DNA from: Hanamia sp. | GTDB taxonomy: Bacteria; Bacteroidota; Bacteroidia; Chitinophagales; Chitinophagaceae | Direction: 5' to 3' | Assembly (NCBI GenBank): GCA_036566285.1 | Contig: DATCWN010000146.1 | Location: forward strand, 1 to 43,538 | DNA length: 43,538 nucleotides | Shown: positions 30,309 to 32,486 of the stretch, one piece after another | How positions within the stretch are numbered: position 1 is the first letter of the stretch | How the letters are laid out: every line of letters begins with the position of its first letter | The notes under the pieces: model-generated | What the model was told of the DNA's origin: nothing | What the model saw: the letters and a program-made list of their open reading frames with translations, nothing else | Databases searched by the model: none | Translations under genes and position numbers: made by a program

Positions 30309-31508
30309 ATGCAGACAACATTTATTAAATCAAGATCAATTTTTAACATGAATGGATTAACCTTCATAAAAATTGAAAGTCTTTTTCTAATTGCAATCCT
30401 TTTATTTTTTGCTTCCTGTGTAAAGAATCATGACCATCCTTGCGCTGAGGATACTCCGGTGATAAAAGTAAAAGTTATGGCGACGGGATTAAACAATCCA
30501 CGGGGATTAAAGTTTGGCCCCGACGGGAACTTGTATGTGGCAGAAGGGGGGATAGGTGGCACCCAATCTTCCACCGGATGCGATCAGGTAATTCCGCCCA
30601 TTGGCCCTTATACAGGCAGCGCCACAGGCGGACGCATTTCAAAAATTAGTTGGAACGGAGAGCGTACCACTATGGTTGACAATTTACCCACCAGCCAAAC
30701 CAGCGCTGAAAGTGGCGCACTCGTTAGTGGCGTGGCCGACGTAGCCTTTATAGGCCGCAATCTTTATGCGATACTCGCTGGTGCGGGCTGCTCCCATGGA
30801 GTTCCTTCTTTGCCCAATGGTATCGTAAGAATTAAAGGTTATAATAATTGGTCATTGATAGCTGATTTAAGCGCCTGGCAACAAGATCATCCTGTTTTGC
30901 ATCCTGAAGAAGATGATTTTGAACCCGATGGCACCTGGTATAATATGATAACCGTGAACGGAAATTTTTTCGCAGTAGAACCCAATCATGGTGAATTGGT
31001 AAAAGTAAATGCCGGCGGGAAAATTAGCAGGGTACTTGATATTTCCGCCAGCCAGGGCCATATTGTTCCTACTGCTCTTGCGTTTGACAGAGGAAATTTT
31101 TATGTCGGCAATCTGAATCCGTTTCCCATTGTTGATGGAAGCTCCCATATTTATAAAATAACTCCCGAAGGGGAAATATCTATTGTCCAATCTGATTTCA
31201 CCACCGTATTGGGAATTGCTTTTGACGAATGGCATAGAATGTATGTATTGGAAAATACCACCGGCAATCCTTTCCCTACACCCGGTACAGGAAGGGTTAT
31301 AAGAATTAATGATTCCGGCACGCGCGATGTAATTGCTTCAGGTCTTAATCTGCCTACCGGCATTACGTTTGGCCCCGATGGAAAATTATATGTATCTAAC
31401 TGGGGATTCGGGCCACCGGCAATAGGAGGCGGACAAATTCTTCAGATTACAGTCAAAAACTGTGAAGGCCAGGACTTGCCATCTGCACCCAGGTTTGGGA
31501 AAGATTAA
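30309..31508 (+). CDS. ScyD/ScyE-like beta-propeller lipoprotein
   Basis: Lipobox FASC; ATGLNNPRGL.FGPDG.LYVAEGG.G, VPTALA, GL..PTGI.FGPDG.LYVSN.G repeats. Confidence 0.75.
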   Translation: MQTTFIKSRSIFNMNGLTFIKIESLFLIAILLFFASCVKNHDHPCAEDTPVIKVKVMATGLNNPRGLKFGPDGNLYVAEGGIGGTQSSTGCDQVIPPIGPYTGSATGGRISKISWNGERTTMVDNLPTSQTSAESGALVSGVADVAFIGRNLYAILAGAGCSHGVPSLPNGIVRIKGYNNWSLIADLSAWQQDHPVLHPEEDDFEPDGTWYNMITVNGNFFAVEPNHGELVKVNAGGKISRVLDISASQGHIVPTALAFDRGNFYVGNLNPFPIVDGSSHIYKITPEGEISIVQSDFTTVLGIAFDEWHRMYVLENTTGNPFPTPGTGRVIRINDSGTRDVIASGLNLPTGITFGPDGKLYVSNWGFGPPAIGGGQILQITVKNCEGQDLPSAPRFGKD

Positions 31509-31641: not shown

Positions 31642-31687
31642 AAATAAAAAATAAAACCCTTACAAGTTAATACCAGTAAGGGTTTTA
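31642..31687 (-). terminator. Intrinsic terminator downstream of the tRNA-like RNA
   Basis: 12-bp stem taaaacccttac/gtaagggtttta (31652-31687) followed on the - strand by TTTTTTATTT. Confidence 0.75.
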
Positions 31688-31700
31688 ATGTTTAAAGTTG

Positions 31701-31874
31701 CTGTAGGGGAAGGGTTCGAACCTTCACGAGGCAGTTAGCTATAACACAAAGAAAGTTGAGTGGTCAACCCTGGTCGTTCAGATTTTCATCAGAGCGGCTC
31801 TATGCTACGTTTATCCTGTGCTCCTCACCCCCGAGACAAGAGGGCATGTCTGCCAAAAATTTCATCACCCCACA
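31701..31874 (-). ncRNA. tRNA-like RNA (GUC anticodon) with a ~102-nt structured variable-arm insertion
   Basis: Acceptor TGTGGGG/CCCTACA + G73; D arm ATG-AAATTTTTGGCAGA-CAT; anticodon arm CCCTC-TTGTCTC-GGGGG; T arm GAAGG-TTCGAAC-CCTTC; insertion 31726-31827; no encoded CCA. Confidence 0.8.
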
Positions 31875-31896
31875 ATATTTAAGAACTAATCTGATG

Positions 31897-31928
31897 CAAA
31901 TCTAAATACTAAGCCTTTATCAAACAAA
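31897..31928 (-). promoter_or_regulatory. Promoter of the tRNA-like RNA
   Basis: TAGATTTG (-7) at 31897-31904 and TTTG (-33) at 31925-31928, 20-nt spacer. Confidence 0.7.
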
Positions 31929-32012
31929 TATTTTAACAGAATTACTTGGAATATAGAAAAGTTTTAAATAGTTTAGCTTTTTTGTACAAATCATCTAAAA
32001 ATAAAAACTAAA

Positions 32013-32486
32013 ATGGCTGCAAAGTTTAATATTGATAAACTCGATTTACAGATCATCCAGGAAATGTTGGAAAATGCTGAAACACCTTATGCCGAGCTGG
32101 GCAAAAAACTTTTTGTAAGCGGTGGTACCATTCACGTTCGCATCAAAAAATTGGAAGAGCTCGGTATAGTTAAAGGTAAAAGATTAAAAGTAAATCTAAA
32201 ACAATTAGGTTTCGACATTACCGCATTCGTGGGAATTTTTTTAGAAAAAAGTTCTTTATATGATGTGGTCGCCAAAGAATTGGAAAAAATTCCTGAAATA
32301 GTGAGGCTGAATTATACCACAGGAAATTACAGCATGTACATCGAAATTGTTTGTAAGGATATCAATCAGCTACGAGGAATTCTGCACGATGATCTGCAAA
32401 AAATAAAAGGCATCGAACGCACGGAGACGCTCATTTCACTTGCAGAAAGTTTTAATAGAAGTGTGAAAGTGAGTGATGAAGAATAG
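32013..32486 (+). CDS. Lrp/AsnC family transcriptional regulator
   Basis: IDKLDLQI....TPYAELGKKLFVSGGTIHVRIKKL..GI HTH; YTTGNYS..C; L.KI.GIERTETLISL, close in pattern to AsnC. Confidence 0.93.
   Translation: MAAKFNIDKLDLQIIQEMLENAETPYAELGKKLFVSGGTIHVRIKKLEELGIVKGKRLKVNLKQLGFDITAFVGIFLEKSSLYDVVAKELEKIPEIVRLNYTTGNYSMYIEIVCKDINQLRGILHDDLQKIKGIERTETLISLAESFNRSVKVSDEE

Follow-up and report, generated by a model that had tools for sequence, protein, structure and literature searches.

A conserved tRNA-like RNA beside asnC in Chitinophagaceae, proposed as an aspartate-charged carrier for asparagine supply

In the window (the whole 43,538-nt stretch of Hanamia sp. DNA analysed), a tRNA-like RNA gene lies back to back with a gene for an AsnC-like regulator, and we lean towards reading the RNA as a non-decoding carrier that would be charged by AspRS, amidated by GatCAB, and used to supply asparagine under AsnC control. 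Taken on their own, charging plus amidation of the RNA are probable, and control of the RNA by AsnC is quite likely. A broader proposal, on which we are evenly divided, is that the RNA gene stands in for asparagine synthetase: a carrier built from tRNA-Leu would form, with AspRS and GatCAB, a cyclic off-ribosome asparagine factory, regulated like asnA, evolutionarily interchangeable with asnB or with a GatB-AspRS fusion, and acquired by phages as both an Asp and an Asn type. The structure of the RNA, the conservation of its identity marks, its synteny with asnC, its co-retention with gatB, and its exclusion from genomes with asnA or asnB were established; every chemical and regulatory step of the proposal is one that we infer.

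The gene was delimited by a cloverleaf reading and a covariance model. The original prediction had put a GUC anticodon, G73, a U1-A72 pair and U37 on the minus strand, with an lrp/asnC gene divergent across a 138-bp gap, and all were found in place (U1 at 31874, A72 at 31702, G73 at 31701; ORF at 32013-32486; gap at 31875-32012). The features are as follows.

31646..31686, minus strand: terminator-like hairpin and U tract, 14 nt past G73 (from sequence)
31701..31874, minus strand: tRNA-like RNA gene, 174 nt, U1 to G73 (cloverleaf reading; covariance model R1, 116.5 bits)
31709..31725, minus strand: T arm with G49-C65 and A51-U63
31726..31827, minus strand: variable arm, 102 nt (base helix, 3-bp helix, A-rich internal loop, 7-bp helix, variable hairpins)
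31759..31771, minus strand: small hairpin inside the variable arm, with UUGA loop and bulged A
31828..31844, minus strand: anticodon arm with G34 U35 C36 (31837-31835), U37 (31834) and C38 (31833)
31845..31867, minus strand: D arm of Leu type, with 3-bp stem, A15 and expanded U-rich loop (compared with the genome's own tRNA-Leu, tRNA-Ser and tRNA-Asp)
31868..31874, minus strand: 5' strand of the 7-bp acceptor stem (U1-A72; G2-C71, with C71 at 31703)
31875..32012, no strand: divergent AT-rich intergenic region, 138 bp, presumed target of AsnC
31897..31928, minus strand: putative Bacteroidota-type promoter of the RNA, TTTG, 20 nt, TAGATTTG, ending 22 nt before U1 (from sequence)
32013..32486, plus strand: AsnC-like Lrp-family regulator, 157 aa (profile and structure-database matches)

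CCA is absent from the DNA of the RNA gene, CAA following directly after G73. The putative promoter was called with what we take to be the Bacteroidota promoter consensus, and across 70 homologous gaps the downstream promoter element was present on the RNA strand in 53 versus 13 on the asnC strand. A sigma-70 scan picked up neither promoter nor terminator of the RNA; the terminator-like hairpin is missing from the list of the hairpin scan because its loop is longer than the limit of that scan. The span 31701..31874 was not called by ARAGORN (default) or Rfam, and the gene is missed by standard tRNA and RNA-family annotation; a call on it by relaxed ARAGORN was rejected, with both intron and anticodon wrong. 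The RNA is single copy in its genome (3.9 Mb, 38% GC), which also holds an ordinary tRNA-Asp and a tmRNA. Default ARAGORN listed 37 tRNAs there, without tRNA-Asn, tRNA-Glu or tRNA-Trp, probably owing to assembly gaps. Neighbours of the locus are a ScyD/E-family gene, which ends at 31508, and, at the opposite side, an oligopeptide permease gene.

Single-sequence folding was uninformative, the folding energy of the RNA being ordinary (z -0.05). In 36 homologues, cellular and viral, chosen for diversity, 99.3% of cloverleaf cells were paired, and double changes were found in 19 of the 24 cloverleaf pairs (0 of 500 shuffles as high; slid controls, 49-63%), which supports a cloverleaf that is more than chance. 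U1-A72 and G2-C71 were unchanged in all 36, and the anticodon loop was near-invariant whereas the stems covaried; the acceptor and T stems followed a 7/5 arrangement with covariation, not 8/4 or 9/3. Three further covarying helices in the variable arm (helices 4-6) were 94-100% paired in 30 long-armed copies, with double changes in 12 of 14 pairs. The small hairpin, 93% paired with little covariation, was found in 12 of the 26 copies from the class draw described below, and is a possible candidate for a protein contact. Arm length varied between 19 nt, in some phages, and about 140 nt, so that the giant arm counts as an elaboration rather than a defining part of the RNA. The arm junction and core (A15-U48, 20a) agreed with the tRNA-Leu genes of the genome, not with tRNA-Ser, and the distance of 8 nt from G19 to the anticodon stem places a base at position 20a, as in tRNA-Asp and tRNA-Leu.

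Identity marks were tallied on class copies, one per genome, found by covariance model without imposing the anticodon. U1-A72, G2-C71, G73, C38, G49-C65 and A51-U63 were each present in 26/26 copies and GUC in 25/26, so the mixed Asp/Asn identity originally predicted from one sequence is conserved. Among 108 distinct cellular sequences (one false parse dropped), U1-A72, G49-C65 and A51-U63 were present in 108/108; among 49 distinct viral copies, U1-A72, G2-C71 and G73 were present in 49/49, though outside the search pattern, with G49-C65 in 46/49 and A51-U63 in 44/49. Passages of PMC9976931 give bacterial Asp identity as G73, G34, U35, C36 and C38, with G2-C71 as a minor element, and with G1-C72 and G10 helping AspRS; G1-C72 is absent from the RNA and G10 is kept in just 4 of 26 class copies. 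Passages of PMC1635274 give U1-A72 as the GatCAB determinant, with the anticodon irrelevant to GatCAB, and report that tRNA-Asp given U1-A72 can be both aspartylated and amidated. The same source gives the extra D-loop base 20A as an antideterminant for GatCAB, with an effect of one to two orders of magnitude in tRNA-Asp, in agreement with a passage of PMC2811023. On the T-stem side, according to PMC1904265 in part, G49-C65 and A51-U63 stop Asp-tRNA-Asn from binding EF-Tu, EF-Tu does bind Asn on a T stem of tRNA-Asn type, and free Asn-tRNA-Asn has a 7-min half-life. Judged by these rules, the RNA would thus be Asp-like where AspRS reads and Asn-like where GatCAB and EF-Tu read. Marks added here to those first noticed were C38 with G2-C71, G49-C65 with A51-U63, the Leu-type frame, and the extra D-loop position, the last of which counts against amidation.

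Compared with tRNA-Asp, the RNA carries the Asp set (G34 U35 C36 C38 G73, G2-C71) and lacks G1-C72, G49-U65 and G51-C63, all three found in the true tRNA-Asp of the genome, as well as a purine at 37 and a short variable loop. Among features of tRNA-Asn and GatCAB substrates, U1-A72 is present, and a GUU anticodon and the absence of 20a are not found. The class II core of tRNA-Leu (A15-U48, 20a, long arm) is present, with G73 in 26/26 copies in place of the discriminator A73. Features of tmRNA were not found: the anticodon arm is intact, there is no Rfam match, and the tmRNA of the genome lies at another place.

For the neighbouring protein, the best NCBIfam match was AsnC (NF008384) at 162.9 bits, below the cut-off of 227 and ahead of other families by about 100 bits, and the best PDB match was E. 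coli AsnC (2CG4, E 3e-34; next best 1e-18). By sequence likeness alone, its C-terminal Y-T-T-G-x-Y-S and T-E-T motifs match 2CG4 and are kept in 26 orthologues. Proteins of Hanamia, Ginsengibacter and further Chitinophagaceae share 87-92% identity with the regulator. Synteny was surveyed from both sides. With the AsnC protein as the only query, 80 loci were retrieved; upstream DNA was long enough in 72 of them, and in 71 of these the RNA was divergent from asnC (70 full parses and one by covariance model), with gaps of 123-582 bp across 70 loci. Starting from the RNA, asnC was adjacent and divergent in 23 of 26 class carriers, with an orthologue somewhere in 26/26. The pairing is therefore not confined to this genome, as had been a concern for the original prediction. 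An adjacent asnC was missing from three f69 genomes, G230, G108, G179 and all 82 viral loci; linkage of RNA and asnC is general and not obligatory. Apart from asnC, the only common neighbour, no conserved release enzyme or transferase adjoined cellular copies. Two genomes (G239, G311) hold a second, unlinked RNA copy with U73 not G73 (L390:2009-2130, L391:2064-2189), and both have a second AsnC paralogue; in another genome (G143), canonical asnB has a divergent neighbour, a more remote Lrp/AsnC gene. In E. coli, asnC and asnA are likewise laid out divergently. AsnC of E. coli activates asnA unless asparagine is present, as stated in a passage of PMC4482635.

The genome holding the window has one bacterial AspRS, AsnRS, GlnRS (split over two contigs), gatA and gatB, and profile searches of it found neither asnA nor canonical asnB. 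gatA and gatB lie on separate contigs with unrelated neighbours. The AsnB domain had seven matches in this genome, one of them fused to a glycosyltransferase, and 3/3 AsnB-like ORFs tested passed the broad TIGR01536 cut-off and not the asnB equivalog. The AspRS carries Phe31 and Lys81. Non-discriminating AspRSs are marked by His31/Gly83, and His was seen at that position in a Mycobacterium alignment. Across 88 class AspRSs typed (G147 gave no usable piece; G310 was left out), residues 31/81 were alike with and without the RNA and never His, the signature itself being not decisive. According to PMC4206432 in part, single AspRSs of such genomes can be non-discriminating; together with the uniform residues, this means that the RNA may be dispensable.

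Presence and absence were scored in two draws of genomes. For the class draw, 150 Bacteroidia genomes at least 95% complete were taken and 21 candidates per genome scored; tallies take in one unpublished genome (G310: RNA-negative, gatB-positive, without GlnRS or synthetase), on which no conclusion hangs. Model scores were bimodal, with 26 genomes scoring >= 92 bits, three odd copies in the range 75-77, and the rest at <= 63; two low-scoring candidates inspected were tRNA-Leu, and in 5 genomes with gatB and no RNA call, searching more deeply with the model gave nothing above 58 bits. Over cut-off were gatB in 111 genomes, GlnRS in 57, asnB in 19 and asnA in 5. All 26 RNA carriers had gatB, and none had asnA or canonical asnB, versus 22 genomes of the draw with one. 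Among 19 genomes with both GlnRS and GatB, the RNA was present in 14 and a GatB-AspRS fusion in 4, leaving one 210-contig genome unexplained. Among 38 genomes with GlnRS and without GatB, the RNA was present in none, and 21 had no synthetase either; among 92 with GatB and without GlnRS, it was present in 12, and 76 had neither RNA nor asnA/asnB. The RNA is therefore not the only solution, and other asparagine routes or auxotrophy must exist (76/92 and 21/38). In the fusion, GatB is joined to a second, His-type AspRS directly behind gatA (two fetched: L407:1179-4493 in G302, L408:1138-4455 in G329). The fusion group is family f86, also including G268 and G355, with GlnRS present and the RNA absent, and amounts to a one-chain transamidosome. 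In other classes, the pattern matched in 0/150 genomes, though most have gatB.

For the family draw, 241 Chitinophagaceae genomes at least 97% complete were taken; the sampled genomes are related, so that counts overstate independence. The RNA was present in 0/59 genomes without gatB (51 with no pattern match, 4 with visible chance strings, 4 negative by model) and in about 178/182 with gatB (175 by pattern, 3 more by model, 4 negative, of which 3 were model-checked), where 178 may be about one too high because 88 matches lay outside the matches listed and the pattern background is about 0.2 per genome. Two of the four gatB-positive negatives are assemblies of 340 and 700 contigs. The contrast between gatB and RNA was repeated inside genera g248, g276, g126 and g157 and family f20, with asnB in RNA-free members of g157 and f20 and in 2 of 3 gatB-free members of g126; one g126 genome (G340) has gatB and no RNA match. 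Canonical asnB was found in 2 of 5 gatB-free family genomes tested.

By published identity rules, the proposed carrier would act as follows. AspRS would load aspartate through G34 U35 C36 C38 G73, G49-C65 and A51-U63 would keep the Asp form off EF-Tu, and GatCAB would amidate Asp-RNA through U1-A72; with a GUC loop, an AspRS that is poor at tRNA-Asn could still feed GatCAB. With less support, asparagine would then be freed by hydrolysis or hand-over and feed AsnRS, U37, the variable position 33 and the giant arm would keep the RNA from decoding Asp codons as Asn, and AsnC would switch the RNA on at low asparagine, as it does asnA in E. coli. Against a carrier stand position 20a, whose geometry in a Leu-type core may differ, the absence of G1-C72 and the rarity of G10. 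Also counted against it are the 102-nt arm, AspRS tolerance of which is presumed, the AsnB-like paralogues, the 76 gatB genomes without RNA or synthetase, the UUC loops of one genome (G171), and the lack of a nearby release enzyme. The two copies in G171 are in tandem (L240:1501-1610, 1723-1831), both with a UUC (Glu-type) loop, U1-A72 and G73; they are possibly a Glu/Gln version or a sign of relaxed reading by AspRS.

Viral relatives were collected as 82 stretches matching the GUC pattern, and with the anticodon left free, 71 viral loci gave GUC in 63, GUU in 5 and AUC in 3; the GUU loop was found in viral relatives only. A search of annotated phages returned one unannotated record and no short-form match, and plasmids gave no match. 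Next to one viral GUC copy lies a gene for an AsnRS-like protein without anticodon domain (L168:2553-3377), of a viral catalytic-domain-only family of about 275 aa found in at least 597 stretches (L168:2553-3377, L412-L491) and absent from the genome holding the window; the protein is possibly an asparagine synthetase or an RNA-dependent enzyme. In 80 loci of this family, a Leu-frame RNA (GUU loop, U37, G73) lay directly behind the gene in 11 (10 of these, all in related phages, have A1-U72) and an ordinary tRNA-Asn in 2, and the former tie the frame to asparagine independently. Further viral Leu-frame RNAs have U1-A72 with C2-G71, a tRNA-Asn-like acceptor, together with a GUU loop and U37 (L530, L545, L551, L552, L556). 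An AUC loop with U37 is found in short-armed forms (L521, L547, L554) and in a 76-nt minimal form (L244:1501-1576) in a genome, G191, that also has asnA and gatB. Many genomes hold two or three intact copies, and in L060, L080, L082, L089, L056 and L058 damaged tandem copies, which lack either the acceptor 5' strand or some of the D arm, lie beside an intact gene. An ATE-like aminoacyl-tRNA protein transferase gene is near the RNA in six phage loci (L142, L143, L155, L176, L182, L195); in this phage group the RNA lies beside a terminase gene, and Tad2-like genes recur. On one phage contig, two Mom-family genes are directly downstream of the RNA (L168:409-1853).

These viral neighbourhoods bear on an unlikely alternative, in which the charged and amidated RNA would be an activated donor (Asn-RNA or Asp-RNA) for off-ribosome transfer to a protein, a lipid, a cell-wall part or a DNA base. 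It would explain the joint loss with gatB equally well, the ATE-like gene in six loci and the single locus with two Mom-family genes and the AsnRS-like catalytic-only gene would fit it, as would the GUU-loop relatives behind that gene in 11/80 loci, and the conserved arm motifs resemble a partner-binding site. It is weakened by cellular copies, which have asnC and no conserved transferase beside them, and it predicts neither the exclusion from asnA/asnB genomes (0/26) nor replacement by the GatB-AspRS fusion.

The original prediction favoured a sensing module in which the RNA decoys, or is charged by, AspRS/GatCAB. Its tie to GatCAB stands, through co-occurrence with gatB, and sensing or decoy as the main role is not supported; a working substrate in asparagine supply is preferred because of the co-loss with gatB, the asnA/asnB exclusion and the replacement by the fusion. 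It is judged improbable that the RNA, under AsnC control, acts as a decoy or sensor by binding AspRS or GatCAB and adjusting their activity, with no net flux through it: synteny with asnC would fit, the 20a antideterminant (PMC1635274, in part) could give a poor GatCAB substrate that still binds, and homologues look abundant in RNA libraries, yet antideterminants against EF-Tu specific to the Asp form would be needless, absence from all canonical-synthetase genomes would be unexpected, and an AsnC orthologue is kept in 6 genomes that lack the RNA, of which 4 have asnA or asnB. The RNA-library contigs come from at least three studies of compost and soil; they accumulate over the RNA span of relatives (491 in one run) and are only a hint of transcription of homologues, being contigs of relatives with no silent control stretch that do not show ends, CCA or levels; uncovered flanks in these data prove nothing, because flanks diverge.

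A decoding role, as an extra tRNA-Asp or as a regulated mistranslator placing asparagine at aspartate codons, is thought less probable again. The cloverleaf is intact, ARAGORN calls short-armed viral forms tRNA-Asp, some of them inside tRNA clusters, and Asn on a T stem of tRNA-Asn type would bind EF-Tu (PMC1904265, in part); set against this, position 37 was U in 20, G in 5 and C in 1 of 26 class copies and never A, position 33 was other than U in 4/26, the same frame is found with AUC, UUC and GUU loops, arms can be as long as 100-140 nt, and a normal tRNA-Asp is already present. It is very improbable that the RNA is an allo-tRNA-like acceptor of serine or leucine whose anticodon plays no part, or what is left of a decaying tRNA-Leu or of an integration, since the long arm with G73 (SerRS signals in a passage of PMC7609411) and the tRNA-Leu frame are outweighed by a G73 that rules out the Leu determinant A73 (PMC9976931, in part), a junction and A15-U48 of Leu and not Ser type, a near-invariant anticodon loop with covarying stems, 7/5 stems, and a presence that follows gatB.

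Returning to the carrier for asparagine supply, it would offer a testable answer both to asparagine supply without a synthetase and to GatCAB retention; a passage of PMC4206432 poses as an open question, for Bacteroidetes among others, why bacteria with AsnRS and GlnRS keep GatCAB. If true, a free amino acid would be built on a purpose-made non-coding RNA in about three quarters of sampled Chitinophagaceae genomes, which are common soil and water bacteria, and AspRS and GatCAB would tolerate a class II frame whose arm is very long, a property of use in designing synthetic tRNAs. The literature covered, mostly outside subscription journals, gave no description of the RNA, and passages of PMC13440311, PMC7311316, PMC8007984 and PMC3927822 had nothing relevant to it. 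There is a real chance that an RNA carrier dedicated to the synthesis of a free amino acid would here be seen for the first time.

Among known systems, tRNA-Asn of the indirect pathway (non-discriminating AspRS with GatCAB; passages of PMC1635274 and PMC4206432) shares with the RNA U1-A72, G73, G49-C65 and A51-U63, as well as co-occurrence with GatCAB where a genome has AsnRS and GlnRS and lacks asparagine synthetase; the RNA differs in its Asp anticodon, C38, Leu-type core, U37, 102-nt arm and gene position beside a regulator, and in a product that would be released. Engineered tRNA-Asp(U1-A72) variants, aspartylated and amidated in vitro according to part of PMC1635274, have the Asp anticodon and U1-A72 in common with the RNA, which by contrast is natural and class II and retains the 20a that cut amidation in the variants. 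Bacterial tRNA-Leu has the same 3-bp D stem, A15-U48, 20a and variable-arm junction, and the RNA departs from it in G73 instead of A73, U1-A72, a GUC loop, and an arm five to eight times longer. Allo-tRNAs and selC* tRNAs (passages of PMC5389517 and PMC7609411) are also non-canonical and long-armed, some allo-tRNAs with GUC, but their stems are 8/4 or 9/3 and their anticodons vary, whereas this family has 7/5 stems and a fixed Asp/Asn set; the word Bacteroidetes is not present in the text seen of PMC5389517. At the E. coli asnC-asnA locus (PMC4482635, in part), AsnC likewise presides over asparagine supply, the target here being an RNA and not asparagine synthetase A. The staphylococcal non-elongator tRNA-Gly (PMC1904265, in part) is similarly set aside off the ribosome through weak EF-Tu T-stem pairs and donates glycine to the cell wall, whereas the RNA is tied to an amidotransferase and amino-acid supply. 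On the features tested, the RNA falls outside tRNA-Asp, tRNA-Asn, tRNA-Leu, allo-tRNA and tmRNA, yet it would appear to work like indirect-pathway tRNA-Asn and the non-elongator tRNAs.
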